64,000 bases of DNA from Seison nebaliae. Lineage: Eukaryota. Of the stretch, positions 3,809 through 64,000 are shown piece by piece. The translations under genes and the position numbers were made by a program. Location: assembly GCA_023231475.1 (NCBI GenBank), contig JALJEE010001494.1:1-64000 (forward strand), read 5' to 3'. Within the stretch, counting starts at the first letter, position 1, and the number at the start of each line of letters is the position of its first letter. Under the pieces are notes generated by a model. It saw nothing but the letters and a program-made list of their open reading frames with translations, searched no databases and was not told the origin of the DNA.

Positions 3809-6800
3809 TTATCGATTTCGATTCATTCTTGTACGAACGAATCCTCGCGGAGTTCTCGTCGGTCTCGAGCTTAATGTTTTGTTATCTCTTCCGGGGAAGG
3901 GTGCATGACCAGTTGCAACGTTAATCGTTTCAGAAACGGACGTTCCCAATTGTGGTCTACTACGATGATCGATCGATCCAGTACCAGGAGTACTTCGATT
4001 GATAACGGCGCCCGGATTCCGACTTTTCCATAATTGTGACGGTAATCTAGGAGAAGCTTGTGTCGATTCTATTAAATTTTAAATATTTGAATTAAATTCA
4101 GAAAATTAAATTTTTGTAACGATCGAAATTTGTCATAGTTTCCACCGTTTCAGGGATGTCGTGAACTAATCGTTTGTTTAATGACGTTCGAGCAAATTGC
4201 GGTGCATGAGTCGGTGGAATTGATTTCGGTCTCGTCATATTTCCTTGTGAAGGTTTTTCTGTTGGTGATGTTCTTGTTCTAGCAAATCTTGGATCTGTTC
4301 CTCCAGTGATGTGAGTTCGTTTTCCAGACGGAACGGTTCGTCTTCCTGGTATTGGTTGACTATCGACAAACGTATCTGCAGCGGTTCGGATAGTTTTCGG
4401 TTCTTCGAATGGTAATAATGACTCCGGAAGATGATCTTTTGTATCTCGTCGACCTTCTTTCGATTTCTTCTTCGATGTTACAAGAGATGTAGACGATTTT
4501 TTAGTTATAGCAGATGACGATTTCATAGGTGTATTAGACGGTTTTGATGTTGAACTTCGTTGTCCAGTTGGCGGCATTTGTTCACGAGATGTCGTTTTTA
4601 TCGGACTGAGACCGGTAGAACCTCCCGGAACCATTGTGGATGATCTGGTGGTGGATTCGTTTGGTTCAAATGTCGGTTCGTTCATTTCCATCGCTATATT
4701 GCCAGTGTTGGTTTCTGGTGGTTGTTCTGATGAGACACTCACTTGATCTTGAATACCACCACGAGAACTTGTATGAATAATGGCTTGGCTACTTTTCTTC
4801 GCTGTTGATAGGACCTTCGATTTACTTTCGGTTGGTTGCAATTGCCCTACTGATTCCGATTTGGCCATTGGACTTGCTGATTCCGATTGCGGCATTGGAG
4901 TTGGTGATTCAGATCTGAAGGTTGATCGATCTGTTACTGACATTGTGCTATCTTCTTCACAATTTCTTGGTAAGAATTGATATAACTTCTTCACTTCATT
5001 ATCAGTTAAATCGTAGAAATTCGGTTTGGAACTATAAAGGAATTCGGAACAAACCGTCTGTATGGTTCTTCCCGACGGTAATTTCATATTAGCATTCCAG
5101 GCTTGTAGGAAAGCTTCTTCATTCTGTTGTTCTAAATTGAGAAATATTAAATTTCTCAGTTTCGTCGCTGAATAAAATTCAAATTCACTTTCTTCTTGAT
5201 TCATCAAATGTCCGTAAATTTTCCGCAATTCTCCCAATTTCATCGAATTGATTCTCTTCCAAGACGATTTACCTATTTCTGCAATCTGCTGGGGACTGAC
5301 AAACAACTTGTCCACTTCTCCCACTGACACTCCACAAAGTTCGGCAAATCTACGTATTGGTGTTTCTCCTCTAGGCATTTCTTTTAAACGACACGAAAAT
5401 TCCGTCGCCATATTCGTAACCGATTCCTTCCTAATATTTTTCAATTCCTTTTTCAATACTGCCATCGATTCCAATACATCATCCGAATTTGACGACCATT
5501 CAAGTTCTTTATCTAAATCTATTTTGTACATTCGACTACCGATTCCGTCCGCTCGAATAGTTTCGATATAACAACCATGTTGATCGTTTCCCATTGATTG
5601 GATGAGTTCCATATTCTCATAAACTCCATCCGAAGAGATATGAGGTGCATTATCATCATCTAATGCAATTTTTACATATGCTGCTTTTCCTAAATTTTGA
5701 GGTCGGTTCACGTTTTCAGATTTAGCGACTGATTGATGGTGAGATGATTGAGCAATAGTTGGATGGTGGGATGATTTTCCGACCGTTTGATGGTGAGATG
5801 ATTGAGCGATAGTTGGATGATGAGATGATTTTGCAACAGTTTGACGGAGAGATGATTTGGCGACTATTTGACGGTGAGATGATTGTGCGACTGATTGATG
5901 GTGAGATGATGGAGAAATTGATTGATGATGAGACGATTCAGCAATTGACTGATGATGAGACGATTCAGCATTTGGTAGATGATGAGATGATTGATAATGA
6001 ACAGACTTATCAGGAGTTTGCTGATGCATCACCATTGATGATTGTGCTATCGGTTGTTCCGCTGTTGATGGTGGTATTGGGTCAGAATTATGGCTTCTGA
6101 TTGTTTGTGACGCTGCATCATGGGGTATGTTTGACAGTTCTACCGGTTGTTCACGTGGCAGAAATTTACATTCATCAAATCTGGGTTGTGATGGTGGAGG
6201 TTCAACGTTCTTTTTACGTGTAAATGACGTTTTCAATTTACACAATCCTCGTAAAATCGCTTCTTGATCGAACGTATATTGATAAATTTGATATACGAGA
6301 ATTGCGAAAAATGCCAGACACACATTCACCCACGAACAAATACGATAAAGGAAATAAAGTGGCATCAATATAGGAACGTAACTCTTAAAGGGGAAAACCC
6401 AAGTCCATAAAAAAGATCCCACAAAACCGGCCATACTAGCACCAGGTGTAAAAAAGGGAAAAGATCGGGAACCTTCGTCATCTGATTCTTCAGATTCGGA
6501 CGGACATTTTGGACGAGTGAAAAATGCCGAACAAGTATCTTTACTACTCTGAGTTCGACGACATGGCGTAGCTGAAGGAAATAAGGGATTACTTTCTCTT
6601 TTACAACTCTCGACAGTATTCCTCAATTGTTTCACTTCTTTCATTAACACCTCCAACGGAACATTATCTCTCAATCTGATATTCGATTGTTTACAAATAT
6701 TTGCAGACATATTCTTCTTCATCTCCGCACACGTACTGGGTGGTGTTACTTTTTCACTTAACGATTTTTCACTTTTCACTGTTGACGGTTTTTTTTCCAC

Positions 6801-7352
6801 TTCTGTTGATACGCAAGCGTCACGCGTTGTATCTTCCGATGCTCCACAATCAGTACATTCGTACTCCACTAAATCACCAGTACATTGGACATCTTCCAGT
6901 ATCAATCGATCCGGACAAGTTCCATCAGCAAAATAGCCTTGGAACATTGCCGAGAAAGTTTTATTTTGTTTCGTTTCACTCGATATATCAACATCTTTTT
7001 TCTTATCTTTAAATTTCGCATATCGAAACAAATCTTTTCTAAAACTATAAATGGGACCCAGACCTTCAGTTTCAGCTTCCTGACCGTTTCGATCTACAGA
7101 TGCATAATTATTATTGAAGTTCGACAGTGTGTACGGATCAATGTTATTATTAGTTCTATTTTTAACTCTTTGCTCATCTTGCTTTGTTTTATGACGACGA
7201 TATCTAGAAGTCGAATCATTTCTCTTTAACAATTTTACATTTGTCCCTTTAACTGCTCTACGATGTGACATAGCAGTTAACGACAACGAAGTGGAGTGGA
7301 ATAAAAAATACGAAATTCAAATTAAGAAAAAATAAAAGTATTTGGTTTTCAT
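3809..7352 (-). CDS. Orphan ~1100-aa protein with a hydrophobic (probably membrane) block, Ser/His/Gln repeats and an S/T/P-rich tail; two exons
   Basis: 1062-codon ORF. A 52-nt GTTACA...TAG intron (4120-4069) joins it in frame to a terminal exon ending TAA at 3809-3811. Start is either ATG 7271, or ATG 7352 if the in-frame TGA at 7317-7319 is bypassed or an error. No family recognised. Confidence 0.7.
5721..5995 (-). repeat. Coding tandem repeat, about 10 degenerate 27-bp units encoding SSHHQ(S/T)(I/V)A(Q/E/K)
   Basis: Translation SSHHLPNAE SSHHQSIAE SSHHQSISP SSHHQSVAQ SSHRQIVAK SSLRQTVAK SSHHPTIAQ SSHHQTVGK SSHHPTIAQ SSHHQSVAK. Confidence 0.85.
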
Positions 7353-8239: not shown

Positions 8240-8680
8240 AGTACCATATCTTTATTAAAATGGTGATAGTTTAAACAGTTCCTAAAAATAAATTTGATAT
8301 TATTTTTACTTTCGTCTGGAGCTATTTCACCACCTTTTGCCTGTTTTATAATGTTCAAATAGTTTTGAAATAGGACGTTAAATTGAAATATGAAAAGTTA
8401 GATAAAATTTAACTTCTTTAATTTCACTTCTGTTTATATCTGATGAGAACTTTAAATTTATAATGAATGGAATTAATTTAATAAAAATTAATTAATAAAG
8501 GATGGTGGATTAAACAACTTGATTCTTTAACTATTTTTGTAAATTCATTAATATTGGTATATATTTCTAGCTTTAAAATTTGTAATATTTAATTTATGTA
8601 ACTGTCGATTTTCAAACGAAACATCAAGATAAGAAGGATGGAGATAGAGTTAAACATGTAATTATACACGTCATTTATGA
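8240..8680 (-). pseudogene. Diverged duplicate (copy A) of the segment at ~11760-12245; probable decayed gene fragment, cut off at the LINE insertion
   Basis: Shares a near-identical block (agttagataaaatttaacttctttaatttca..gtttatatctgatgagaactttaaatttataatgaat) and tacacgtcatttat with copy B. Similarity stops where RT sequence begins at ~8680. Confidence 0.5.
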
Positions 8681-9530
8681 TGATCAATGCGATCAACTCT
8701 TCAGGAAGTAACAAGGCCAACGACATAGACGGGATTTGTCCAAAACTCGTGCAATGTTGTGAAGAGAGACTGTCGCCGTTTCTTCTCGAAATCGTCAATC
8801 AAGCTTTCGACACAGGAGTGTTCCCCGTCGAATGGTTCCGCTTCAGAGCAATTCCATTGCTGAAGAAACCATCTAACGATACACACGAACTGAATTCTTA
8901 CCGTCCGATCTGCATTAGTCCATTCATGCTTCGTCTCATCGAGCGAATGGTACTCAACAGATACAGGACGAGTTTTTATTCCTCTCCTCATCAATTCCAG
9001 TACAGAGTTGCTGATCGCAGCGTCCATCCGATTCTTATCATATTCCACTCATTATTCTTCGAAGCTCGACCACAATACTCACAATTACACGCGTTGTTCC
9101 TCGATGCATCGAAAGCTTTCGATTCCACTGACGTGGTACCGGCTTTCTCCTCCATAGCAGCTAGGAACACACCGGATATAGTTTTGCGTTTTCTCCGTCA
9201 ATTATGTTTCTTTTCCACCGTGTCGCTATCATTCAATCATACTCTGGGAACTCCTTTCCTGGTCAACAATGGTGTCAGACAAGGTTCCATTCTGGGACCT
9301 ACCGAGACTACCGATCATATCCGAAATAAATTCGTCCGTGCATCATTCTCATTCGCAACACGATCGAAGTATTTTCCACTTCCAATCCGAATTCGTGTTT
9401 TCTCTTCACTTGTCCTCCCATTATATGGGAGTGCTGTTGGAATTGTCTCTTTTTGGGAATTTACAGATTTATTTATTTTTTTCTTTTCTCTCTTTCCTTC
9501 TTTAAATGAATAAATAAATAAATAAACATA
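8680..9530 (+). mobile_element. 5'-truncated, internally deleted non-LTR (LINE) retrotransposon RT fragment
   Basis: RT motifs YRPICIS, QFQYR, LFLDASKAFDS, GVRQGSILGP. The YADD region is missing (jump at 9300/9301). T-rich 3' region followed by a (TAAA)n tail at ~9509-9527. Confidence 0.88.
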
Positions 9531-9926: not shown

Positions 9927-11282
9927 ATGTCGATGAAATTAACCGTGGCAATTTGCCAATTGAAATGTTTAAAGAATAAATGGAAGAACATAGAGAAGGT
10001 GACAGGAATGATCGGAAGAATCATGAAAGATAATTCTAAAGTCAAATTAATTTGTTTACCAGAGGCAGTTGATGTGTTTGATATTGAAAAGGAGAAATTG
10101 ATTAATGAGGCAATTAAATGGCCGTTCGATTTGAAAGAGAGAAATATGTTGACGGAATGTATGGAATTAGCGAAAAAGTATCAAGTGCAAATTTCAATTG
10201 GGAGTTGTCATGTCCATCGAAAAGAAGAGAAGAAAATTCGAAATACTCATATTCTTATAAATGATGATGGTGAAATAATCGATATGTATGATAAAATACA
10301 TCTCTTTCAAATCTGTCAGAAGAATGGAATTGAAATAAATGAAAATAATTGGACGATCAATGGAACAAAATTGAAATCATCAAAAATATCAAACGGTTTC
10401 ACTTTCGGATATGGAATTTGTTTCGATGTTCGATTTCCGTTAATGGCCGATCGTTTACGACGAGAGAGAAATGTTGATATTTTGACATATCCAAGTGCAT
10501 TTACCAGACGAACTGGTGAAGATCATTGGAATGTTTTATTGAGATGTCGAGCAATTGAAAATCAATGTTATGTTATAGCTGCAACACAATATAATCAAAA
10601 TTTAAATAGTACTTATGGTCATTCGATGGTAATTGATCCATGGGGTCGAATATTAATCGATTTGAAAAAAGAAGAAGATATTTATGGAATTTGTGAATTA
10701 GATAAAACTTTAATAGAAGAATTAAGAAATTCTCTACCAATTACTAATGTTCGAAATGAATTAAATGATTTTTATGATAACAAACCATCACTCATCAATC
10801 CGATAAATTGGGATACTAAACAAATATATTTTAGTTCAAAAATTTTAGTTCCATCAAATCAAATTTTTTGTAGAACAAAATTGTCTTTTGCTTTCGTTAA
10901 CATCCGTCCATTACTCCCTTATCATATTTTAATTTCTCCTTTAAGAAATGATGTGAAAAGATTCACCAATTTAACCAGTAAAGAAAATGAAGATATTTTC
11001 CAATTAAGTCAAATTATTTGTAAGAAATTCGAACAGAATTTACACAGTGATTCCTTCACCATCGCCATTCAAGATGGTGAAGCAGCTGGACAATCTGTAA
11101 GTCATGTCCATATTCATTTAATCCCTCGTATCTTCAATGATTTGGAGAACAATGATGATATTTATAAGGAATTGAATCGTGATATGGAAAGAAGTTTATC
11201 CGAAGAAAGAAATAATCGTTCTCTTGCAGAAATGGAGAATGAAGCAGTTTATTTGAGGAATATTATCTATGCACCACAATAA
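9927..11282 (+). CDS. NitFhit: NitFhit fusion protein (Nit1-type nitrilase-family amidase plus Fhit dinucleoside triphosphate hydrolase), intronless
   Basis: Nitrilase triad motifs CLPEA, YDKIHLF, GICFDVRFP; also YPSAFT and RAIENQCYVIAA. C-terminal HIT domain with AIQDGEAAGQSVSHVHIHLIPR and NDDIY. Confidence 0.95.
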   Translation: MSMKLTVAICQLKCLKNKWKNIEKVTGMIGRIMKDNSKVKLICLPEAVDVFDIEKEKLINEAIKWPFDLKERNMLTECMELAKKYQVQISIGSCHVHRKEEKKIRNTHILINDDGEIIDMYDKIHLFQICQKNGIEINENNWTINGTKLKSSKISNGFTFGYGICFDVRFPLMADRLRRERNVDILTYPSAFTRRTGEDHWNVLLRCRAIENQCYVIAATQYNQNLNSTYGHSMVIDPWGRILIDLKKEEDIYGICELDKTLIEELRNSLPITNVRNELNDFYDNKPSLINPINWDTKQIYFSSKILVPSNQIFCRTKLSFAFVNIRPLLPYHILISPLRNDVKRFTNLTSKENEDIFQLSQIICKKFEQNLHSDSFTIAIQDGEAAGQSVSHVHIHLIPRIFNDLENNDDIYKELNRDMERSLSEERNNRSLAEMENEAVYLRNIIYAPQ

Positions 11283-12558: not shown

Positions 12559-14395
12559 AATTATTATTATTATTATTTATTGCTCACAAAAAGTGAAAAA
12601 AACTCCCATAAAATTCTGCAAGATAAAATAAAAAATGAGTTAAATTAAAGAAAAAAAAAACAGAAAAATAAAAATGAAAATAAAGGATTAAAAAAAGAAA
12701 GAAGAGAGAAAGATAAATCTACAGCACGAACACTCATGACGAAATATTAGATATATCTAATAATCATACAAAGTGTTCCCGTTCAGAAACTCCGATAACT
12801 CGCTAAACTTGTTTTGATCGAGCATATGTCGGGCATTGGAAAGATGAGGGAGGAGATTTGGTTGCAGAAGGTTGATTGATGAAAAATTGTAAATAAAGTT
12901 CTTAAATTCAGATGAAGTTGATGATGCCCGTATATCATATTAATCTCGAACATGACGCAAAATCGATCTGTCAGATTCCAACATTTCAACGATCAACGAA
13001 TCCATACCTTGAAACGAGGGATAAGCTGAAACCCCATCCAAAACTCCTAAGATTCTCTTTGCGAATATAATCGGAAAAGGAACAAGATCCGTAAGAGAAA
13101 ACAGAAATGCTCTATTGCAGCGACGGAAGCAACCGACGAAGCGACGAACGGCCCTTGAAAAACATCTGTCCATAGCTAAGAAAGAGCTTGATGAAGCGAC
13201 AAAAATAGAATGGAGTCCAAATAGCGGTTGAACTAACATGGTGAATAAATATATTTTTGTTCGAAGAGGAAAGAATTTGACACGATTGAGAAACGAGAAA
13301 TAAATTCGACAAAAAGAAGAAGGAATATTATCTAGAGAACTGGAAGAGAGTTTCCACGAGTCTGGATGGACACCGAGGAAACGAGTAGACGGAGATAATG
13401 TGATTGGAAGATTAATAATTCGACTCCCAGCCGTAGAAGGTGTTAGGTTCTTCGATTGATTCACCGATATACCTAAGTTACATAATGTCACCTTGGTGAA
13501 TGATAACACATCCAATAGACTCCGATTAGACGTGGAAAACAGTACGATGTCATCAGCGTAAGCATGTGCTGCTGGAATACGAGATGACATAAATAGAAAA
13601 ACGAGAATTGATTGAATCGACTGCCGAATCGAGAGCAAGACCGAACAGCCACGGTCCTAGTATCGAGCCTTGGCGAACACCTCGATGAACTTGGAAAAAA
13701 GCCGACTGCTGATTTTTGCCCAATACGGAACAGAATGATCGTGAACACAATGTTTTTATGAACGATAACATAGAGTGATGAACTTCACGGGATTGCAGAT
13801 AATTTAGTGCAGGAAGTACATCGATGGAATCGAACGCTCTTGATTCGTCGAGAAGCGAAATATGAAGAGGACGGTTCGTTGTCCTATGATAATAGATTAA
13901 GGATCTCACAATGGCCACGCAAGGATGCACCCCTCTGTTGTTTCTCCTATAAGCACATTGAACTGTGGAGAAATAAAATTCATATTGGAATCTTCTTATA
14001 ATCACACGTTCAAAAACACGAAGGAGGAACCAAGGAACACAGATGGGACGAAAGGAGCTAACCAGTGACGAATCCAACAGTTGATTCTTCAGGATTGGGA
14101 CAATCCTGAATTGGAACAGATCGTCCGGAAATTCATTCTTCGCCAGACAATTGTTAATGAGAGAAGAAATCTTTGGTAGAAGACTCTCGATCAACAATTG
14201 AGCCAGCATCGGACAAACGTTATCACAACCATGTGCAGTTGAGCTCTTTAGTGAAGTAATGGCAGATCTAATTTCATCATTTGAAAAAGAAAAGAGATAA
14301 ATGTTGGATTAATTAGAAGAAAAAGAAAGTAAGATGTCGGATGAATACATATAGGACGTATAATGTTCGACAAATTCCTGAATAGTTGGATTCGA
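12559..14395 (-). mobile_element. Non-LTR (LINE) retrotransposon RT region, frameshifted, with 3' UTR and (TAA)n tail
   Basis: Motifs FRPIC, LLDESRAFDS, GVRQGSILGP in ORF 13553-14209; YADDIVL and RFLGVH in another frame (12940-13638). On the minus strand a T-rich 3' UTR is followed by AATAAA and (TAA)n at 12559-12581. Homologous to the 8680-9530 copy. Confidence 0.9.
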
Positions 14396-37542: not shown

Positions 37543-39115
37543 ATGAAGTTGATGAAAAATGATGATTGGAATCAACTCTCTTATTTATCGGGATTCGGTA
37601 ACGAATTCACATCCGAATGTATCGAAGGTGCAATACCAATCGAACAGAATTCACCACAAGTCTGTAAATTTGGATTATATGCTGAACAATTATCAGGAAC
37701 TGCTTTCACCATGGGAAGGAAGAGGAATTTCCGCTCTTGGCTCTACCGACGACTCCCATCGGTGAAACATGGTGAATATAAACCGTTGAGGAATTTGTTA
37801 TTACCTGCCAATTTCTCATCAAACTTTTCACCGAATCATCCCGAATGTTCCATTGATCCATCACCAATTAAATGGTCACCATTTCCCATACCAGATCATA
37901 AAGTCAACTTTGTGAAAGGATTGACAACAATTGGCGGTGCTGGTGATCCAACTATTCGACATGGATTAGCTATCCATATTTATGCATGTAACGAATCGAT
38001 GGGGTCGAAATTGACATTTAACAATTCCGATGGTGATTTTCTTATCGTACCACAGGAAGGTCGATTATTTATTCGAACGGAATTTGGTCGATTAATTGTC
38101 AAACCAAATGAGATTTGTGTCATTCAAGTTCATCTTTCAAATGATCAAAATGATTTTTAAATATTAATTTTCTAGTTGGGAATGAGATTTAGTGTTGACG
38201 TAGAAGGAAATAGTCGTGGATATATTTTAGAAGTGTTTGATGGTCATTTTACAATTCCAGATTTAGGACCGATCGGTTTTAATTAAATTTAATTAATAGA
38301 AAAATAATTTATTTAATTTGTGTTAGGTGCAAATGGTTTAGCGAATCCACGTCATTTCTTAAGTCCATCAGCATATGAAGAGGTGGGAGAAGCACATCAA
38401 TTAATCATCACTAAATATCAAGGAAGATTGTTCGAGTATGAACAGACTCATTCGTGTTTCGATGTGGTGGGATGGCATGGCAATTATGTGCCATACAAAT
38501 ATGATTTGTCGAAATTCATGGTAATCAATAGCGTATCATTTGATCATTGTGTTCGTCATCATTCATTCTAATTCCATTAATTTTCCTGTTTGTTTAGGAT
38601 CCGAGTATATTTACTGTTCTAACATGTCAGAGTAATACTGTGGGTACAGCGATCGCTGATTTCGTCATATTCCCTCCACGATGGGGTGTCTCTGAAAATA
38701 CATTTCGACCTCCTTATTATCATAGTTATTATTATCATTCTCCTTCAATTGTTAAAACTAAAGAAAATTTAAAGGAAATTGTATGTCGGAATTTATGGGA
38801 CTGATTTTCGGAGCATACGAAGCAAAACCAAATCAATTATTGCCGGGAGGAGGAACTCTCCATTCAATGGGCACTCCACATGGTCCTGATGCTGATTGTT
38901 TTAAGAAGGCGAGTAGCGACGAACTGAAACCGGAACGGGTGGCAGAAGATACTCAAGTTCATCATTTCTCTTCTCAATTCACATATACATTTCTCTTGTA
39001 GTCTTTCATGTTCGAATCATGTTTGAGTATCGTATTAACGAAGACTGCACGACTGATGGCTGATGAAACATATAGTTCTTGCTGGGATGCACTCCAGAGA
39101 TGGAAATGCGACTAG
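37543..39115 (+). CDS. HGD: Homogentisate 1,2-dioxygenase; six exons
   Basis: [94 protein letters not shown]. Introns 38128-38175, 38276-38326, 38551-38597, 38725-38774, 38957-39001. Confidence 0.97.
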
Positions 39116-40837
39116 ATGTAATTATCACCTTCCTACATAACGCTACGGCAACTTTATACTTTTCCTTTATGTTTCGGTGATTTTCTCCTCCATTCACCTT
39201 CAAATCATCCTTTAATCATTGAGAATTTCTCAGTCTCCTTTCCACATAACTTCAACACTAAATTATATGAATAAAATTACTTATTGGATAAAATGTCAAA
39301 CCTCTAAATTATTCATACTAAATTAGAAGATCTAATCCCACTAATTTAAAGTTCTCCTCTAAAAGTGCGAAAATCTATTCTTTTTTTCAATCCTGAAAAA
39401 CTCATCGATATTATAAAAATGGAATGGATTAATCACATTTGACAAACAATGAAGGAAAGTGAAATAAGGTCATTTAATGAGAAAAGATAAGTGGAAGATT
39501 TGACTTGAGGAACTTTGAAATTATGTTAATTGTTTATTTGGAGAAATGCACGGAATGTGCACACTTTACATTTTTGATCAGATTGCATTAGTTTTCGGAT
39601 TTCTCCTCTATTAAATTTCATCGAGTGCTAATGTCTGTGTCAATTGAAATTAGGAGTAGAATAATCGAACAGGAACTGACGAAAATAAGTTTTGATTGAT
39701 ATTAATAACGAAATTCGTTTTTACTGTTCAATTACTCGAAAAAGAATGTGCAATTCGTAGGGAATAGATGGAATTTGATTGTTTTGAGGAAGAAAGGAAT
39801 GGAAGGAAGTACGTCGTCATATATGTTACACAATGATGATCGTGATGATGATGACATAATGTTTTAAATTTTTAATTTGTAGGTAATGGACGAATCAATT
39901 ACACATTGATTAGATTCGTGTTAATCGTAAAATTGAAAACAAAAGAATAATTGGATCCTGCATGTAATTTGTTTAGTGGGGAACTGTAATTTCTCGTTCA
40001 ACAGTTCTTCTCCATTTCATTCAGTTGTGGTCTCTCTTTCTATATTGGGTGAAAAAATTTTCGTTCATTTCGAAGAATTGTGAAAAATGGAGGAAAATAT
40101 GATTTTTCTGCGCACCTTCAATATTGTCAGTGACGATAATAGAAATGGATAATAAGAATAGTAAAAGGAATAATAAGAATAATAATATTTGGGGAGAAGA
40201 AGAAAGAAGACGAAAAAGAAAAATAGAAAGAAAAGAATAATTACTAAAGAGAGTAATAGAGCAAGAACTGAGCACCAAAAACAGAGAGGAGATGAAGTGA
40301 AATAATATTTTTATATAAATTTCTTATTATTTGCAGTTTATTTCCAGTGAGTGATTCATAGAGTGTGATTCGTACGTAAAGAATTATTTCGGGAACTATC
40401 GTTATTTCTATTTGACATATGATAGGGACATTACTCGTTCTGCCACCATCGTTTGTTTCCATCTCTCGATCGAACTCCCATTTCACCATTCATTTCACCA
40501 TTACTCACTGACGATTCAACTATCGGCAATGCTTCTTCTCACGATGGAATTGCCATTCCTCTCAGTTTCAGAACCGATACAAATTGATTAATTCCAATTC
40601 TCTATCATTCTGTCTTCTTATCGTGATTCCGATTCAATGTCACTGTCGTATCAGTTGACAAATTTGAATTGCATGTAGTCTTAAGCGGAGAGATTAATTG
40701 TCGGGAAGGACTGGTCGATTGAATCAGATGGAAGAAATAGACGGGGAGTCATGTTAATGAAAAGCATTCAAAAATAGAAGAAAGGACTGATATGTATGAT
40801 AATGAAAAATGGGAGGAGAAATAAAGCAGATACAAAT

Positions 40838-40976
<139 letters not shown>

Positions 40977-43390: not shown

Positions 43391-43702
43391 ATGACGATTT
43401 GTATTTGTGGAGATGTGGAGGAGAGAAATAATGAAGAATTTCTTATAGTTGGTTTGACATCTTTCGTTCTTGTTTCCTTTTTAGTAGTTTCCATATATTA
43501 TTCATTCTATTATTCTTATTGTTTCCAAAATGCTGCCAAATGCAATATAGATGCAGCAAATATTTCGAAATGGGAAAGAATGAAAGAAGCTGCAGAATAT
43601 AAGGTAACGATGATAATCGATTCGCTTTCTTTTTTCTCCCGCTCTACATTCTCGTCTCATGCACCAAATACATCTTTTCTTTTCGACAGTCAACATAACT
43701 AA
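43391..43702 (+). CDS. Possible small single-pass membrane protein
   Basis: ATG-initiated 103-codon ORF in AT-rich DNA with one hydrophobic segment (FLIVGLTSFVLVSFLVVSIYY). No family recognised; may be spurious or one exon of a larger gene. Confidence 0.25.
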   Translation: MTICICGDVEERNNEEFLIVGLTSFVLVSFLVVSIYYSFYYSYCFQNAAKCNIDAANISKWERMKEAAEYKVTMIIDSLSFFSRSTFSSHAPNTSFLFDSQHN

Positions 43703-44088
43703 TAGTTTGGTGGAGGAAAGTGTGATAGGTTATATGGAAATTGATTGATTCCTTCTCCCCAACATTAACAGTTAACTAAATCAATTTTAAGATACGTAAT
43801 TGCGAGAAAGAAAGAAAGAAAAAGGAATTTTCCCCTCCATTCCAATCGTTTGTCTCATTCATTTAACCTCCACAATATCATCATACTGATCGATCTGACT
43901 CATTTAATATTTCTGCTTTATTGATTTAACAGAAGGAAAGGAATTTTATTTGCATTCGAATGGATTTCATCCTGATCCAATCGACGAAATATTCACAAAT
44001 TATGAATCAGATACTTTCCTGAAAAAAAAAGTAAGTTTTCTTCTTCGAATTTTATCATGAAGAAATCTCATTGAGTTGACGAAAGAAT

Positions 44089-45643
44089 ATGTTCGATTCA
44101 TATGATCTTCAACATGTCATTCTGTCGAAGTTCGAGGGTGTATGGCGACAAACGACAGTCATTTCCAAAGTTGGAATGGATTGTTTCAACGGATTGGATG
44201 AGACGAGACTATTGAGATTAACAAGATCGTTAGTGAATAATCAGAATCATTTCTACAATAATCACACTACCACCACCACCACCACCATCAACCACAACAA
44301 GAACAATATGAGTTTAGAAGAAGAATTCTTCTCCAACATTCCTTCGTCGACAGATACATCCGAATATTTAATAGACGCAAGAAAATTGTATGCTATTTAT
44401 ACTCCCTGGCCATTATATATCGATTGTCTATTAAAATATATGTATCCCATCGTCATAGTTTCTAGCATCATTCTATCGTTGATCAATGTCTTTATATTGG
44501 CACAACCGATTATTCGTGTGGGACAAAATGCACGTTCATTCCTCTTCGCTACACTTTCCTGCGAGTCATTATTATTGTGCACCGCCTCAATTTTGTTATT
44601 GGACCAATATGTCGATCGATCGAAACATCATTCATCTTTCTTATCCTCTTCATCTACTTCATCTTCATCATCATCTGGATCACCTTCATCTTCACGATCA
44701 TCTCCATCACTTTCCACCGTCAATAAATTGAAATTCGACAATCGACTTCTCCTCTCACCACAATCCTCCTCATCATCCAACACTTCACAAACATCTACAT
44801 CTTCCTCGTCGATTGTCGCCTCTTCCCATTTCATGACAACAACATTACCGTCATCATCAACCGTCTTCAATATCAGTCGTAAACGGAATCGTCTAAATAA
44901 ACGGTTTTTAACCGATGACGTTTTCTTCACCGATTCCTTCAACAATTATCATTTATATCAATCCGACGATCAGGAAACATTGAACGCCGAATATCGTAAT
45001 TATTGGTTGAAGCAATCGTATTCATCGATGAACGATGATGACGAATTGAGACGATCTCATTTCTACATCGAAATTCTGCTTTACACACAACTCATCGCTA
45101 ATTATTTTCATTCGGTGCTGATAATATTAACATTATTCTACCTCATGTTCGCCGCCTTCGAACATACAATGACGTCATTGCAGTCAAACTGCTTATATGA
45201 ACGATATTTCTGTTCATCCATCCACATTCGAACAATTTCACTCATTCTCCCCATACTCATCAGTTTAACTTTACTTCCACAATTGTTCGCATATGAAATC
45301 ATTCCATATCATCAATTCGTGGAGAGGATCGTTAAGAAATATGAAATGATCGACGTCTCATCATACCAGATGAATGCCGACGACGCCCATGTACATCATT
45401 CCAATTTTTCAACTAATAAATCTTCAATTTTTCCTGATATCACCTCCGACAACGATAGTCATTTCACTCACACGTCAACAATCTCATCAAATTCTCAGAA
45501 TAAAACGAAAAATCAAAATCATCTCCATGAAGATAACGAAGCATTAAATATATTATTTTCACGATTTTATCTCCATTCCGATTTACTGATACCAAAATTC
45601 TCTTTGAAGAACGTTAACAATTCAAAAAACAATCCAAATCACA

Positions 45644-45683
<40 letters not shown>

Positions 45684-48600
45684 GTCATCACTATCATCGT
45701 CGTCGTCGTCGTCGTCGTCGTTGAAGAATCATCGGAAATTAAACTTCCCCACCATCAGCCACGATGAAAAGATGATGACATCTAATCGAGATTTTCATGA
45801 AAATTTCCATAATGATTACACTCCATTTCAAACCGTATCGAATCAAAATAACCATTTCAAAAGTAATCTTTCATTATTCTATGATGATTTCAATCCATCG
45901 AATGTCTATGATTATGACGACGAGAATTATGTGGGACAATATTTCTCGTTAATTCATCGACCATATTTTGATGAAGATAATGGTAAAATAAATCAGAATG
46001 ATGTTCATTCTTTCCAACAGTTGAATGAAGAAAAACGAAAAAAACGAGAAATTAAACGAGAAACGAAAAATGTCGAATCAGAACGACATCATCGAAACCG
46101 GCGAATGCTATCGGTGGAAGGAATCGATCGACTTAACAAGAAGAAGATTCCTAAAGAATTTTCAGGTGTTGTAGATCTTTATCCGAAATTGAGTGAGATT
46201 GAATATTTGAATAAAATCAATCAATTATTCGAGATGCCTTATTTCTGGTCCGCATCGAACATGTGGTTCCTCATGAACTCTTATTGGCTTCGTCTCATTT
46301 ATACGAGACATTTACAAAATCAATTCCTTATTTATTATCAAATGAAAGAGAATGAAAAGAAATTTATTAATCGTCCTTATTCCTCTCCCAACGACTATTT
46401 CGACAATGAACTTCATCATGATGATCATTTCAAATCGATTAATACCGAATTCAAACGATCATTTAATGAATCGAATGACAATTCGAATTTTTTACGATTT
46501 CTAAGTTCGAGTGAATCGTCCGCCGAATTTCAAGTGAAATCGAAATGTGAATTGATTTTGGAGAAGGTTTTCCTTCCACATCCGTTAGAGCCGGTCGTTG
46601 TCAAAAGAGATTTTGGTAAATCGTTTATTTATACCATCTTTTTCCATTGGTATTTCCATACATTAGATCTCTTCCTTCCACTCCCTTTAATTTCCGTTTT
46701 GTTTGCCGTTCTTCTCTATCAGTTGAAGAAGGAATTGACGTTGAGAATTCCATCGAAAAAATCGATTGAATTACAAGAAGCGGCGATGAAACAATCGAAA
46801 CGTTCAAGTACATTCCAATATGCGACTGATCATATTCGGAAGAATTTCCGAATAAAGAGGAGGAAGGAATCGATAAAAAAATCATTAATTCGACGAACGA
46901 ATAAATCGTCAGAATTGAATAATTCGAATGAAATCATTTCAAATAAAGAATATGAATCAAATAAATTCAATCCATTATTTGTTGAAGATATGCATCAATT
47001 ACAGAATGAAGATCCTTGTCGAATGGAGACATGTGTATGTCTAATGCCACCAAATGCTGGTTTGACTCAACCCAACACTCAATTATTGAAATTAGAAGAT
47101 CGTTCTCAAGTTCATTCAACGATGAATAAAGTTGAAGCATTGGGTCAGAAACGATTGAACAAAACGACATTTGTTGATCTCTTTCAAATAATTCCAACCA
47201 CATCAAACATCATAAGTACAACGGCAACCATACCAATTAGTACGATGATAGGAATGTCGAAATTGTCGGAGAATGTAAAACAGCCGAAAATCATCGTCAC
47301 CACAACGACAATTCCGTCGACGACGATGGGAAATGAGAAACTGGAAGATAATGTACCAGAAAAACCGTTTTATGATTTCGGATCAACATCTTCTGGAAAT
47401 AATGCCATTCCAACAATTGTTACATCGTCAGCTGAGTTCGTGGGGAAGAAATCTTCGATTTCCACTTCTTCTTATTTTAATCGAGATAATGTAATTTATC
47501 GGAGTCAAACTGAATATAATCGAGAATCAATCGAGAATCAATTACGAATGGAACTTTCTGCCACTATTCAACAACGGGAAGAAAAAAGACAACATAACAC
47601 AAATCGGTCATCGACATTACCAAATAATCGTAAATTGACGGATGAAGATGAAGGTAAACGATCATATCAATTGGCGTTACGTCAACGATATGTGGACGCT
47701 CAGAAGAAGAAGATGGGACGTACAAATCAATATGCGGATGAGAATGTTGATTTATATTCGAAAGAAGAACAACAACGTCGTCGTTATCAACATGGGAAGA
47801 AGAAGATGTGTTATCAGCAACGTAATTTGAAACATATCGTAGTGAAAAATGAGAAAGATGTGCACAAATATGAGATTGAAGATGTTTTCGGACAAATCCA
47901 TAAAATATCTTCTTTCTATTCTTGTAAATCGTCTTCTTATATATTATCGTCATCGTTAATGAGCGAATCATTAACATCATCAACTTTAAATACGAAACGT
48001 TCAAATTCGATTTCTTCATCAATTCGCGATTTGAATGAAATGCAGGAGATGAGCGGACCGTTGAACAAATCGAAAACGACCAATTTAAATGATCATCAAC
48101 CAACTGATGCACAACGATTACTCTCACGACATTATCATCAGCGCAAGTTAATGCTAATGGAACGGACACGATCAATTAATGAGAATAAAATACATTTACA
48201 ATCGGAAACCGTAACGAGACTGGATAGCAGGAAAGAAAAAGAATTAATTAATACGAATTTCATTAATGTTGTTACATCGTCAAAGAATGGTACATCTCCA
48301 ATATCGTGCTTGACGTCGATAACTCCAAATGAGAAATTTTCATCAATCGACGAGACTCCAATCTCTAAATTGTCAAATGCATCGAACGGTAAAACGAAAG
48401 ACGAACTTCCGATATCCATCTCATCAATAGAACACATATCTTCCTCAACTGTCTCATCTTCATCATCAACAACAACAACAATAACAACAACAGCATCATT
48501 AACAATTGGAACGACAACTCCAATAAGTACAACGACGACAACAACAACAACAACGGTCATAAAACCGATATATAATTCGGATGGCGAAGAAATTATGAAA

Positions 48601-50310
48601 CTGACGGGAACAACAGAAAGTGTTTCGATGGAAATTGAGAAAGAATTGGAAAAAGGAAATATTCCAGAGAGTACGGAGAAGAAATGTCCTGCATTACAAG
48701 CAGAACAACAAACATCAACAATGACACGAAGAGAGTCGTTAAGGAAAAGTAGAAAATTGAGAAAGATTCCAACGTTATTGGAAGATCTTGACGATGATAC
48801 GAACGTCATACAAGAAGATCAGAAGAAAATGTCAGACGAAGTAAATGAGACATCTCCAATCATCGAACGTCATCCATCTGTTAAGGATATCGTATGTAAT
48901 TTGGAGAAGATGAAAAATAATTCTGATCCAAAACAACCGGTCAAGATTTCCAAATCAAAATCCGTCATTAGCCCATCCTCCACAATCACCACCACCACCA
49001 CTAGTGGGGTTGTTCGAGCGGCGAAGAACGGTCGAAAGAAACCGATAAAAACGACAAATAAAACCACATCAACTGAAGAGAAAACGAAAAAGATGAAAAG
49101 AATCAAAGTGAAAACGATTGGGAAGAATAAGAATTCAGTGCCTAAAAACGAGATGTGTAAGGAGACGAGTGTGAAAGAATCTGAAGTATTAGAGATTAAT
49201 GAGAAAGCGAACGTTGATAGAGAAGTGTTCGCCTTCAATCCAATCGAAGTGACATATGGCCGAATTAATACACAGCCGGTTTATCATGACAACTATAATT
49301 ATGTTCCGCTCAGACGTAATCAAAGTGAGAGATTAAATCGTAGAATAGATTTGCTGAAAAATGGAATAAAATCAAAAGTTGTTGGACGAACAGTTCAGAA
49401 TTTCCATTCTCCACCATATCCCAATCATTGGAATAATTATCAGAATACCGAATCATCCCATATGATTCCCACTATAATTTCATCCATCGATTATAATAAA
49501 TCATGTCAATCGACAAACTATCATCATCATCATCATCAACAACAACAACGACAACAGTTTAATATACATCAACAACATCAACAACATCAACAACAACAGT
49601 TTAATTTACAACAAGAACAACAAAAACAGAATTCGTCAAAGAATAAATTGAAAGAGATTCCATTAACGAATGATGATAATCATGAACCAATCGATTCGAG
49701 TGGTGACGAACAAATATTTCCATTATCAATTCCCAGGCGGACGATTGAACAATGTCTGGAACGTCAGAATATGTCCAAACTTTACATAGCAATATTCATT
49801 CTTTACATTCTCCTCGTCCTTCCTTATATTTTGGCGCGTGTCTCACTCTTCATTCTGGTGAAGATTTACTTCTTTAGTACTATTCATTTCTTGCTGATTT
49901 ATAAATTATCTTTTTTCTTCTTCCTCCTTTTCATCTTCTCCAAATTCTTTCTACTCTGCATCTTTTCCAAAAATTACCGAAAATCTTTCAAACGAATTAT
50001 CTGCTTGCACTTCTTCTGTTTTCCCTCACTCTGTTGTCGAACGAACATTTTCAATTCCGATTCCGACAGTCATCATCGACGCGCCGGTCATCGAAGTCGA
50101 ACGAGAAGGAGAAGGAGAAGAAATCATTCCGATTTAGATGAAGACGACGAAGGAGATGGAGTAGATTATGATCACAACCATTCGTATGTTGCAGTCGATC
50201 GTTGTCAACGTCAAACGAAATTCAAACGAATCTCACACAGAAGCAATGATTATCAACACTCATCTATTGACTCTTCTTATTCCTCATCGATTAAAAGGAA
50301 ATGTTGTTAA
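44089..50310 (+). CDS. Giant single-exon class A-like (peptide-receptor-type) 7TM GPCR, 2073 aa
   Basis: Seven hydrophobic segments in GPCR order: TM1 ~44428 (YMYPIVIV), TM2 ~44539, TM3 ~45061-45165 ending FEH, TM4 ~45232 ending LPQLFAYE, TM5 ~46624 (HW..LFLPLPLI), TM6 ~49780 (ILLVLPY), TM7 ~49888. Helix 8-like SKNYRKSF and a Cys cluster follow. Confidence 0.75.
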
Positions 50311-57754: not shown

Positions 57755-58244
57755 GGGAAAATGACATTTGGTAGACGGGACTATTTGGTAGACCGATCTG
57801 TTGGGAGACGGACGTTTGGTAGACCGATCATTAGGTAGACTGCGTATAAAAATAGAGTTATATATATCTTTTTATTATTTTCTTTTTTCACTTTGAAATT
57901 ACACCAAATGTATGGGTTATCTAAAAAGATTTTTATTTTATTTTTTTTCTCTATTTTAAATTTCTTCAGAGCTCTTGTTCCGATAATAATACATCAAAAA
58001 TCATATTTTTTTTACACTATTGGATTCAGCTGGATGAAAAGATATATATTAAAAAATCGAGCAAAATTCATCAATTTTTATCCGAAAAACTAAGGGTTTT
58101 CCACGTGTTTAACGACTAAATACATTTTTGCTATAATTTTCAAAAAAAACATGGAACCCATATTTCAACCCTTCCGTTTCCCAAACGGTTGGTCTACCAA
58201 ACGTCCGTCTCCCAAATGATCGGTCTACCAAATGCCCTAGACTC
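57755..58244. mobile_element. 490-bp non-autonomous Mutator/Foldback-type MITE with TIRs built from ~15-bp tandem units
   Basis: Left arm tttggtagaccgatctgttgggagacggacgtttggtagacc is inverted at right as ggtctaccaaacgtccgtctcccaaatgatcggtctaccaaa. Flanks AATAACTCTT (57745-57754) and AATAACCCAT (58245-58254) form a degenerate 10-bp TSD. Confidence 0.85.
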
Positions 58245-61200
58245 AATAACCCATAACTTTCTATTAGATAAACGACGAATTACCATCCAATCATCCATTC
58301 TTTTTCATTAGTTTCTTTTCATAAAAAAATGTTAAATAAAATGTCAATACTTCAATTTCACGGATCTTCACGCAACTTTCACTTTTCGATCCGTTCGATT
58401 GTCGAAGAAAAATGGAGAAAAAACTGTGAATGATTTCAATTACAATTTCTCATCCGCTACAGTTACGTTGAATAATTCACCTAAACATAATTCTCAATTT
58501 ATAGTATAGTGTTGTGGGACGAATAATGTTTAATGAAAACTAGTGTTAACTAATCCCATCGAAAATCTTTCCCATGTTATTTATGAAGGGGGAATCGATA
58601 TAAGCGACGTACTTCACACGATTGTGCATGTATGTGTTTGTGTGTGGAAGGTACTAAAGACATGCAGCAGATGACTGAGAGACGATTAAGTATTTCGGAT
58701 GAAATTTGTATTTAAAAAAAATCATCACAAATCAACAACAATTCATTTGATTACATGAGATATGAAGGAGGAATTAAAGCGATTGCATAAAAACTCTTTC
58801 CACTTCGTAAGAAGAAGAAAAAGGAAAATTCTTCTTATTATCGATCGATTATCGAATGAGCAGTGCCTCAAATCGAGAAATTAAATGGATTATGTTCCGA
58901 TTCTTACAGATACATAATTGGCTAAGTGGAAGCATGATTATTATTGGAATTAATTGGTAAGTTATTGATATAAGTGGTTGGGAATGATTCGTTTTTTTTA
59001 TTTCCTTCACAACCTATTAATATGAAAAAAATTATTTTTTGATTCATCAATCACATCAGGAAAACTCTCTTTGATTACTGACGATCTTGTTAGATAATTG
59101 AGAAGAATACAGAAATAAATTAAGAGCGATAAATACAATTATTACGGAGTATATCCCTCCTATAATTCGAAAATTTAAGCAACAATTTTATTATAATTCG
59201 AGTAACAATTTCTTTGTTGTACCTTAAACAGGAATTTCTTTTTTCTTTCGTACTTCTCCAATTTCTTATCTTTACCGAATATTATTCGTCTCCTTCCAAT
59301 ATTCTCATTTAAAAGTTATTGGAAGAATTGACATTTCCTTAAACTGATACAATCAGTCATAAATACGATGTTCGTCCGTGATAAGTTCGACGAAAGAAGA
59401 TGAACCATCTCTCAAATTGGATAATGGAAAACGGATTTAGTTCATTCCGTTCTTAGTGTTCAAAGAAAATTTTCATTTTAAAAGTTGTCGGATATAAAGA
59501 ATAAAATTCTGGAAAGTACGACTATTTATTCAGACATTAATTACCGAGTAGATTATAGATGGAATTCTGTAAAAAAAAGAAATTGGCGAGATAATCTCAT
59601 CAGTATTTAGTTAATGTTAACTGTTTCTAACAAATGCATTAATGATTTTCCTCGACAGCAATTATTCATGTAATGTCTGTTTCTTCCGAGCGAATGTAAT
59701 TGATTAGGAGAACGATAGATAATTCATTTGATATTATCCTACTTGATTTGCCATCTTGACCAAATTGAGAAGTGTATGTAGTATCAGATCATAGTAAGGA
59801 GGAAAGGAGAATGCCAATGGTATTTAGATGAGATGAATCAGATGACAAATTAGAAGTAAAATTTGAGAAGATGAAAAGGAGAAAAAATCGAATGTTCATT
59901 ATCAAATTCTTTCGAATATTCAAGAATCAGATTATCAAAGATTAACATTCAATGAATTAAGAAGATATCTATTTGGAATTCTATCATTAATTGGAATCGA
60001 ATTACAATTTTCGTAGGAAGCAATTGAACATGATGATGATTATTATGAGGTGGAGAGATTAGATAGTAAATAAATTGTATAACGAGATTGTCGAAATGAA
60101 TTTCTTTAGATGATTTACTGTTCGTCAATCTAAGAAGAAGGACGGTACCGAATTTCTGAATTGACACGAGTGGAATTGATTGATCTGTAAGAAAATTATA
60201 TGTGAAAGTTTCGTTCGCCCATTGTGGAAGGTGAGAGATGAGATGTATAGAAATTTGGTTTAACAACGAATTACCTCGATAATGGAGACATATATAAATA
60301 TCGATAACGGACTGGAGAATACATGCGAACAGAAGTATCGATGTTGTCTAAGTAAAATCCTGTTGGAATGTGTGAATAGAATGGAATATAATTACACATA
60401 CAATTTTATCTTGAACAGATAGACGATTCGATGAATGAATGGATGGATGGATCATTATATTGCATATTATAATTTATTGATAAACTAATGATACGTATTG
60501 AAATAATATCATTCATTATCTAGTTAAAGTTTGTGCAGTGAATGTGCACAGAACATCTCTCCACATATGATGTATACGACAAATTTCACTTCCGTCTACA
60601 ATTATATTCTGAGTCATCTAATCAATTTGCTAACAGTCACTGATGATTATCATTACAATAGTGTAATAGTTCCATTCTCTTCCCTAAACTTTCATCACAA
60701 TCACATGTCCTCCATCGCTCCCTGATTCTTCCAAATTAATAATGATCATCATAATTATAATCGAGATGAAGATGATGGTGGTAGAATTAATGGTAATGGT
60801 GGTAAAACAAGCGGTGATAGTGAGAAAATTAGTGGTGGTGGTGGGAGAATTGATGGTGGTGATGACGAAATATTATTGATCATAAGAAACAATAATGAAA
60901 TGAATAAATAATTTTTAATGATCTTTCATGTTTCACATCGACAACATATTAATGTTTGCATAAAACATATATGTGCGAAACGAGAAACTTCTCAAACATT
61001 CTCTCTGAATTCTTCTTGTTCATGTGCAGATCGAATGCAGTGAGTGAATGGTAAGAAATAATGTAAGGATAATAACCATATCGATCGGATGATGATCAAT
61101 TTTATCTATTTGCCGTTGAACCTCATTCCAATAATTTAATGAGGTGATATGATCCTTCCATCAATTGGAGAGAATGTTTTTGTTGTTGTTATTCGCCTAG

Positions 61201-62304: not shown

Positions 62305-62617
62305 GAATGATATCAATGAGAGAACTATTACATTTTATGTTACTGATTTAAAGATTCTTCTCATCTATTATCTTACTTGAAATTTTTATGTCGTCATTCA
62401 TATGAAGTAGCAGCTAATTCCATTCTATTATTCAACTACTTCCTCCCGTCCCACTAGATAACTGAAGGTGTCATCTCATTACAATGACGACTTATGACTA
62501 GAGTAGATTGCATATATCAAACTTCATTTCTCTTCTGCTGCTATGACTTACTGATCAATCGACAATGCATTTCGTTGACGACATCCAAATGCTTCCTCTT
62601 CTAGTCAGCACTACACG

Positions 62618-64000
62618 ATGAGACCATGTCACATTGTGATTCCCTCTATAAGCATTTGGCGGCGAATTATGTCGATACATCTACTGTTTGCACTTTTTGC
62701 CGTCACAAATGCTTTCTCCAAAAACCGGATGTCGTCAACGGCATATGGCTACCGTCCTGGTGACATACTTCTTGGTGGCTTAGCTCCAGTTCATTTAAAA
62801 GTTTCTCTCCCTCCACTTTCGATTCTCTTAATAAATTGGTTCTCCAATTTCTATCATGTTTTAGAGCGAAGACGGAACGACTTGTGGCCGGTTGAATTTA
62901 GATCGTGGACTACAACGCGTCGAAGCAATGTTGTATTCAATCGATCGTATTAATCGAGAACCTGATACCAGATTGGATAATAACTTACGGTTTGGTATCA
63001 TGATTAAAGATACATGTTCGCGTGACAAATTTGCACGTCAACAATCGATGGAATTTGTTCGAAGACGAATTTCGCGAACGGATTGTTCGAAGAATAATCA
63101 GCCGAATGAATTACAATATATTCCGATTGTTGTCGGCGCCTCATATAGTGGCGTCAGTTCGGCCGTTGCCAATTTATTACAATTATTCGAAATATCATTA
63201 GTCAGCTACGCAAGTACGGGAGAGATTCTGAGTGATCGAGAAAACTTTGAATATTTTGCCCGAACCGTTCCATCTGATACTCAACAAATTGAAGCGATTG
63301 CTGATATTATTCAATATCTAAATTTTACTCATATATCCTATGTGGTTTCTGCTGGTGCTTATGGTCAATCAGCCACCAGAGTATTAAACGAAGCGATGAA
63401 GAAACGAGATGTTTGTGTCGCTGATAAATTGGTGATTGAGAATAAGCCTCAACAGAAACATTATGATAGTATTGCAACTCGATTGATCAAGAATGAAAAT
63501 TCAAATATTATCGTTCTATTTACTCGATCTGATGATACTACGGAATTGTTGAAAGCGATTAGTCATAGGAATAAAACTAATCGATTCCTTTTCATTGCCA
63601 GTGATGGTTGGGGTATGCAATCAAGTGTTGTAGCTCATAATCATGAGATTGCCAATGGTGCATTTACTCTAGAAATTAAATCGGTGAAAATGGATGAATT
63701 CCATCAATCTCTTCTCAATATCGGAAATAATGCCACCAGTTTTTATCATCGATCAAAAGCCAATCCTTGGCTTCGTGAATATTGGAAGGATCGATTCGGA
63801 TGTGAAATGAATCGACATTCAGTTCGATCTTCATTCTATGATTATAATTACTTCTCAAATGACAATAACGAAACATTTCGATTCTGCAACGACAAAGATC
63901 GATTGCCCAACGATTTGAAAATCGATTCGAAAGCACCATTCATTTATTATGCAGTGAAAGCGGCAGCTTTGGCTGTCAAAAGTGCATTGAGGCGTCTCGC
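62618..64000 (+). CDS. mGluR: Metabotropic glutamate receptor (class C GPCR), N-terminal Venus-flytrap domain, truncated by the window end
   Basis: Signal peptide and GDILLGGLAPVH, then a 64-nt GTTTCT...TAG intron (62801-62864). Exon 2 encodes GLQRVEAM, KDTCS, VVGASYSGVS..VANLLQLF, SYAST, YFARTVPSD, AYG, ASDGWG, NPWLREYW, DSKAPF. Alternative start ATG at 62669. Confidence 0.95.

Follow-up and report, generated by a model that had tools for sequence, protein, structure and literature searches.

In the adhesion and glycoprotein-hormone/LGR types of G-protein-coupled receptor (GPCR), the bulk of the chain is a folded N-terminal ectodomain, and third intracellular loops (ICL3s) of several hundred residues exist among invertebrates. 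The accessible text on the complement C3a receptor (C3aR) describes its second extracellular loop (ECL2), at about 172 residues, as unusually large (PMC7905230), and the available parts of two further sources place Srw receptors closest to peptide receptors (PMC3963977, PMC4862687). Here we describe a locus in a 64,000-nucleotide (nt) stretch of Seison nebaliae DNA (contig JALJEE010001494.1, positions 1 to 64,000; hereafter the window) in which positions 44089-50310 of the forward strand form one stop-free frame of 2073 codons, as judged by open reading frame (ORF) listing and translation. The feature is real and was rightly described at first reading; it is probably an orphan receptor derived from class A GPCRs that carries loops of record scale, and it stands as a single instance for which no relatives were found.

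Kyte-Doolittle scanning of the 2073-amino-acid (aa) product resolves five separate hydrophobic peaks (aa 120-138, 152-170, 339-357, 383-401 and 858-876) and an unbroken hydrophobic stretch of some 70 residues (aa 1892-1963), which has room for two helices and is read as transmembrane helices (TM) 6 and 7; the seven segments are spaced as in a class A GPCR. On hydropathy boundaries the short links measure 10 aa for ICL1, 21 aa for ICL2 and a few residues for ECL3. The three remaining loops are of another order, with 152 aa in ECL1, 443 aa in ECL2 and 1015 aa in ICL3, or 78% of the chain, in agreement with the huge expansions of about 150, 440 and 1000 aa reported by a first-pass annotation; loops of ordinary length would give a protein of about 520 aa. 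Evidence on topology comes from hydropathy and flank charges: two, four and five Lys or Arg residues follow within 12 residues of TM1, TM5 and TM7, respectively, which fits the N-out/C-in arrangement that we infer for the protein.

The frame opens with an ATG that is preceded in frame, three codons away, by a stop at 44077-44079, and each of the remaining five frames is interrupted by 86-174 stops across the same interval; the coordinates and sizes first given for the gene were reproduced. The description 'intronless' holds for the 2073 codons themselves and not for their 5' side, where splice-like sites permit a leader or an extra exon. Donor- or acceptor-like sites lie at 43604, 43689 and 44031, a 98-nt stretch (43933-44030) is open in a frame able to join the ORF across an intron of 55 nt, and 43391-43603 (+) is occupied by a frame of 71 codons that includes a hydrophobic segment and gave no Pfam match. 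A spliced leader or additional 5' exons are possible within 43391-44085 (+). At 95% likeness, comparison of the coding frame with four DNA runs, which amount to at most two samples and one of which may be the source of the window, listed neither base substitutions nor indels; the contigs of these runs are interrupted inside the frame at two short repeats, one at 45637-45734 and the other at 49511-49601.

Translation of the loops is very probable: they contain no in-frame stops and show coding-like codon use, and the introns mapped in the window measure 45-51 nt. At the local non-coding stop rate, the probability of meeting no stop is 1e-4 for ECL1, 1e-12 for ECL2 and 1e-28 for ICL3, and the longest stop-free run in 200 shuffles of the ICL3 DNA was 120 codons. 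The codon score of ICL3 is +0.045 in its own frame and -0.09 and -0.04 in the other frames; non-coding controls score -0.10 to -0.14, and held-out coding tails of low complexity score +0.07. The GC content of the loops (34-39%) resembles that of coding sequence, in a window that is AT-rich overall (33% GC) and carries animal-type genes. The nearby homogentisate dioxygenase gene opens to 443 aa once five introns of the length just given are removed. Two further observations are weak: a contig of run X4 (depth 2.8) aligns without gaps to 190 nt of ICL3 (aa 1225-1288), showing 29 differences, and a low-depth X2 contig carries, in the tail, three synonymous third-position changes and two amino-acid changes, the latter shared with another contig; single contigs of depth <5 such as these may be errors. 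The divergent X2 and X4 contigs (depth 2.8-4.4 vs 9-17) match 47762-47951, 50159-50181 and 62513-62610 with about 85% likeness, a hint that the samples may contain a minor divergent haplotype or a relative.

Class A ancestry of the protein appears highly likely. In the Atlas, which works on language-model features, the clusters nearest to aa 1-2046 are 7tm_1/Srw (0.90), as are those nearest to TM1-4 (aa 95-415; 0.91), for which an 87% Srw cluster ranks third (0.90). The best family-bearing matches fall in the GPCR_A clan in 10 of 10 cases for each query, although the two queries overlap and are hence not independent. When the PDB was searched with phmmer, the best match of the whole protein was 5-HT2B from TM6 to helix 8 (E 0.024), and the one match of the TM1-2 piece was the prolactin-releasing peptide receptor at its own TM1-2 (E 0.4). 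Three of the six matches of the TM6-7-helix 8 piece were C-terminal helices of class A receptors (5-HT2B, NMU1R and SSTR1, E 0.17-1), the other three being insect Orco twice (E 0.6) and SecY. The peptide-GPCR-like core proposed by the first-pass annotation is thus borne out by the nearest Atlas clusters and by the position of the PDB matches, but not by any significant Pfam or phmmer match. The protein probably works like a peptide/Srw-type receptor, from which it probably descends.

The signature residues were located with the conventional class A position numbering. At the end of TM3 the DRY position, identified by eye on the basis of spacing, reads E358-H359-T360, with His in place of R3.50, and the NPxxY place in TM7 is occupied by K1952-F-F-L-L1956, where Y7.53 aligns to L1956 on the weak 5-HT2B alignment; both departures had been noticed at first reading. 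On the similarly weak alignment to the prolactin-releasing peptide receptor, S130 stands at N1.50 and S160 at D2.50, with N133 and E159 close by, and L2.46 is retained as L156. No cysteine occurs between aa 164 and 368, leaving the TM3 cysteine of the TM3-ECL2 disulfide replaced; C820 lies in ECL2. Prolines are retained in TM5 (P864/P866, P5.50-like) and in TM6 (P1912, at P6.50), TM4 ends in P-x-x-F, and the segment FSKNYRKSFKRII aligns with helix 8 of 5-HT2B and is followed by four cysteines (C1972, C1977, C1982 and C1983).

Taken together, it is likely that the locus encodes an orphan, strongly diverged class A receptor related to the peptide/Srw types, the helices of which would pack into one ordinary bundle despite the giant loops. 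Several results weigh against this reading. Pfam assigned no family to the whole protein, for which the 7tm_1 cut-off was not reached, and scans of eight separate pieces returned a GPCR family (7tm_1 included) for none of them at E<=10. No match at E<=0.001 was obtained with phmmer for aa 100-900 among 1.84 billion representatives, two word-seeded searches (of proteins of 1140-3628 aa and of 30-1139 aa) gave no relatives, and the PDB search gave no GPCR match for the TM3-4 and TM5 pieces; to these may be added the Orco pair among the TM6-7 matches. Within the Atlas, recognition was marginal (2023, where <2300 is so regarded), 135-144 features were shared as compared with the usual at least 170 for same-family matches, and a score of 0.9 is reached by 4-10 of 100 shuffled proteins. 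Class A signature residues are mostly absent. In addition, the codon score is intermediate for ECL2 (-0.022) and, for ECL1 (-0.084), no better in frame than out of frame, and in-frame GT..AG pairs able to excise the loops nearly whole can be found for ECL1 (two), ECL2 (nine) and ICL3 (two), although chance alone would be expected to supply such pairs in 90-nt windows.

Other searches were uninformative or empty. NCBIfam gave no relevant match. Among seven runs listed, no RNA run with the sequence appeared, and two small runs of another organism gave no match. Single-sequence AlphaFold2 models of aa 100-900 and 105-412 are of low confidence (pLDDT 41 and 50, pTM 0.27 and 0.26), and the latter had no Foldseek match at E<=10 and generic long-helix matches in VIA (best Z 6.5), with no GPCR among the 50 matches listed; folding the four helix blocks as separate chains gave a score of 0.08, which bears neither way. 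The similarly expanded paralogues for which a search had been proposed were not found, there being no long second copy among the matches listed for the DNA-run contigs at 80% DNA likeness. The prediction that hidden Markov model (HMM) searches would fragment or miss the protein was right in that it is missed, but divergence of the helices is responsible as much as fragmentation, since isolated helix pairs also escape Pfam. Because neither profiles nor motifs assign it there, the protein is not filed as a class A member. The kinase domain of the MAP-kinase-interacting kinase encoded in the window shares only about 40% identity with its best relatives, which marks the organism as fast-evolving or poorly sampled.

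Ser, Thr, Asn, Gln and His together make up 38-51% of the loops, whereas runs of at least five identical residues account for 2.4-7.2%, a share similar to that in eight further frames from the window (0-4.4%), and low-complexity windows for 16-42%, so the loop sequence is mostly non-repetitive. The original phrase 'rich in S/T/N/Q/H runs' therefore describes the composition well and overstates the runs, and an origin as pure microsatellite was ruled out. No domain, repeat or internal duplication was detected in the loops with Pfam, the PDB or self-comparison; an origin from fused domains, duplications or transposon pieces was also rejected, since the loops match neither themselves nor other parts of the window and gave no credible Pfam or PDB match. 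The Ser run of ECL2 derives from a (CAT/TCG)n tract; a near-perfect (ATC)46 microsatellite of the same trinucleotide class is found in non-coding DNA at 40838-40976. ECL2 also contains an aromatic-rich segment near aa 700-750 and eight N-glycosylation sequons, a number not above the composition expectation, and for want of enrichment sequons were dropped as evidence on topology. Two R-x-K/R-R motifs in ECL2 (aa 650 and 669), where 0.1 would be expected (P 0.003, from a set of nine tests), suggest convertase sites, but dibasic pairs are enriched in ICL3 as well, tempering these motifs to a lead. The 221 Ser/Thr residues of ICL3 include arrestin-code-like matches (55 vs 30 in shuffles), which were set aside as following from Ser/Thr clustering.

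Features of the 2073-aa frame, with positions in the window
Feature	Position	Strand	Basis
Single ORF, predicted seven-helix membrane protein, 2073 aa	44089..50310	+	ORF and hydropathy
N-terminus, aa 1-113, predicted to be extracellular, with N-glycosylation sequons at N58 and N73 and without hydrophobic leader	44089..44427	+	
TM1, 10-aa ICL1 and TM2, aa 114-173	44428..44607	+	hydropathy; weak PDB alignment, E 0.4
ECL1, 152 aa, Ser-rich, predicted disordered	44608..45063	+	
TM3, 21-aa ICL2 and TM4, aa 326-402	45064..45294	+	
ECL2, 443 aa	45295..46623	+	
TM5, aa 846-880, FLPLP proline motif, basic C-flank	46624..46728	+	
ICL3, 1015 aa, predicted mostly disordered, Thr and Gln/His tracts	46729..49773	+	
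TM6, short ECL3 and TM7, aa 1896-1962	49774..49974	+	
Helix-8-like FSKNYRKSFKRII, cysteine cluster, basic/acidic tail with CC at end	49975..50307	+	

If the receptor is made as read, the seven helices would insert and pack as one bundle whatever the length of the links. A precedent exists in the M2 receptor, for which the accessible text reports that TM1-5 and TM6-7 expressed apart reassemble into a functional receptor (PMC11093360). The loops would be translated, mostly disordered, and grown piecemeal from slippage tracts and unrelated sequence without duplication, a growth that may be tolerated because the class A bundle has no need of short links. The absence of domain, repeat or duplication, together with predicted disorder and short trinucleotide tracts, fits piecemeal growth under weak length constraint with the frame preserved. 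ECL1 and ECL2 might form a glycosylated, Ser/Thr-rich brush covering the ligand pocket, and the Ser/Thr-rich ICL3 might gate or screen the G-protein cavity and supply kinase and arrestin sites, as long ICL3s do elsewhere; long ICL3s are described in the available part of one source as gating G-protein selectivity, a role set out for lengths above about 45 residues (PMC10033409). With N1.50, D2.50, R3.50 and NPxxY replaced, activation would bypass the standard switches, with coupling that may be weak or atypical. A neuropeptide or an environmental cue is the most plausible ligand, given the Srw/peptide affinity of the nearest clusters and the relationships outlined in the accessible parts of PMC3963977 and PMC4862687.

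Other readings of the locus differ in what they make of the helices and the loops. The protein might be a GPCR-derived decoy, scavenger or membrane scaffold without G-protein signalling, its helices serving to anchor a cytoplasmic interaction platform of 1000 residues. This is suggested by the replacement of N1.50, D2.50, the TM3 cysteine, R3.50 and NPxxY, by the Ser/Thr content of ICL3 and by the fact that a 3-kb loop stays open, but we consider it unlikely: the P5.50-like and P6.50 prolines, the helix-8-like segment and the tail cysteines are retained, ICL3 is without domain or repeat, and the loss of motifs may reflect a fast-evolving genome, given the low identity of the kinase to its relatives. 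Moreover, many invertebrate Srw-type and chemosensory receptors signal while lacking the full motif set. A bolder and still less likely variant, built on the R-x-K/R-R motifs of ECL2 and the missing switches, would have ECL2 cut by a convertase, yielding a two-chain bundle with large extracellular tails and no G-protein switches that signals through a 1000-residue disordered cytoplasmic scaffold, as the first example of a hidden loop-expanded class passed over by gene and family annotation. It is rather improbable that the gene makes an ordinary receptor of about 520 aa from which the three loops are spliced wholly or partly, always or in some transcripts, as introns or exitrons. In-frame GT..AG pairs do flank all three loops (for instance, 46740-49736 for ICL3, with a pyrimidine-rich acceptor), and the codon use of ECL1 is not clearly coding, but constitutive introns of 0.4-3 kb would not remain stop-free (1e-4 to 1e-28), the five introns mapped in the window measure 45-51 nt, the GC content of the loops is like that of coding sequence, and GT..AG pairs are expected by chance in windows of the size used.

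The GPCR likeness might instead have arisen by chance in another seven-helix protein, such as an odorant or gustatory ion-channel receptor of the insect type or some unrelated multipass protein, in keeping with the lack of a significant match to any GPCR family and with the presence of Orco among the weak TM6-7 matches. Orco-type channels have an N-in/C-out topology, opposite to the cytoplasmic C-terminus suggested by the basic flanks of the present protein. Every listed family-bearing Atlas match of both queries lies in the GPCR_A clan, the GPCR matches lie on the corresponding helices and in the right order, and the Pfam scans contain no family row for an insect odorant-receptor, gustatory-receptor or Orco profile, the weak Orco match being limited to TM6-7 (E 0.6); such an identity is quite improbable. 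Least credible of all is a decaying or mis-assembled locus without a working product. It would account for the absence of a gene model from the protein collection searches and for the contig breaks at two short repeats, but 6.2 kb are free of stop or frameshift, the pieces give TM1-4, TM5 and TM6-7 in order and in frame, the four DNA runs list no difference, and the three synonymous changes, found in the tail together with two amino-acid replacements, point weakly in the same direction.

No whole or partial gene model of the frame was found in the protein collection, searched among proteins of up to 3628 aa, whereas the neighbouring NitFhit and kinase are present there as products of a 120,889-nt contig; this supports the earlier expectation that a receptor of this kind would be missed. 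The NitFhit (nitrilase-HIT) fusion gene is a single exon of 451 aa at 9927-11282 (+), and reverse-transcriptase fragments at 8677-9513 (+) and 12940-14209 (-), with RVT_1 matches at E 1.5e-11, 3.6e-16 and 1.2e-4, are probably decayed retrotransposon copies flanking it. The homogentisate dioxygenase gene lies at 37543-39120 (+), and all five of its introns begin with GTT. The MAP-kinase-interacting kinase is 671 aa long, as compared with 426-759 aa in its ten best relatives. Genome-wide bloating of proteins is not evident, the sizes of NitFhit, the dioxygenase and the kinase being unremarkable; low-complexity tails are seen on several neighbouring proteins. An orphan ORF of 1057 aa at 4098-7271 (-), which carries a hydrophobic segment in its centre and SSHHQ-type tandem repeats of 9 aa (27 nt), has no credible Pfam match, and its exact sequence is absent from the protein collection. 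At 57765-58250, a short multi-copy element of about ten times the local depth, bounded on either side by related 16/31-nt units, resembles a miniature inverted-repeat transposon. A class C (metabotropic glutamate-like) receptor gene starts at 62579-64000 (+), after about 12 kb without a long ORF.

Should the protein be made as read, the known tolerance of the class A fold would be extended to an ICL3 about four times the stated upper range of 240 aa and, in the same chain and without the usual activation motifs, to an ECL2 about 2.6 times that of C3aR. It would then offer a natural test of helix folding independent of the links and of the ICL3 gating model. In practical terms, the gene, which neither Pfam nor the protein collection contains although its neighbours are there, shows how counts of receptors in fast-evolving animal genomes can overlook genes entirely. 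Were the loops no more than tolerated bulk, it would be a curiosity with a lesson for annotation.

Long loops are familiar from class A receptors, and no receptor with three loops of this size was found in the literature, a weak negative because subscription papers fall mostly outside the coverage; the parts available of PMC9624432, PMC5773224 and PMC12256650 give nothing on extremes of loop length. The closest systems are the Srw/FMRFamide-receptor-like class A receptors of protostomes (PF10324, PF00001), which are the nearest Atlas clusters for both the whole protein and TM1-4, and which share the seven-helix spacing, the P-x-x-F end of TM4, the TM5 proline and the helix-8-like segment. The present protein differs from them in having no Pfam score at all, in the joint enlargement of three loops, in the change of R3.50 to His and in its length of 2073 aa, as compared with 409-587 aa in nine of the ten Atlas clusters listed, the remaining one being an arthropod cluster of 1078 aa. 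With muscarinic, adrenergic and other aminergic receptors it has in common a low-complexity, Ser/Thr-rich TM5-TM6 loop and the weak alignment of TM6-7-helix 8 to 5-HT2B, but aminergic motifs are absent, and the ICL3 of 1015 aa lies far from the 10-240 aa stated for class A in the available text of PMC10033409. The complement C3a receptor is likewise the product of a single-exon class A gene and has a large ECL2, although, going by the accessible part of PMC7905230, this is about 172 aa rather than 443; here ECL1 and ICL3 are enlarged too, and sequence kinship is not shown. In total length, a protein of some 2000 residues is within the range of adhesion and glycoprotein-hormone/LGR receptors. 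In those receptors, however, the length is gained ahead of the helices, whereas here the N-terminus measures 113 aa and 78% of the chain is placed between the helices, in loops without recognisable domains.

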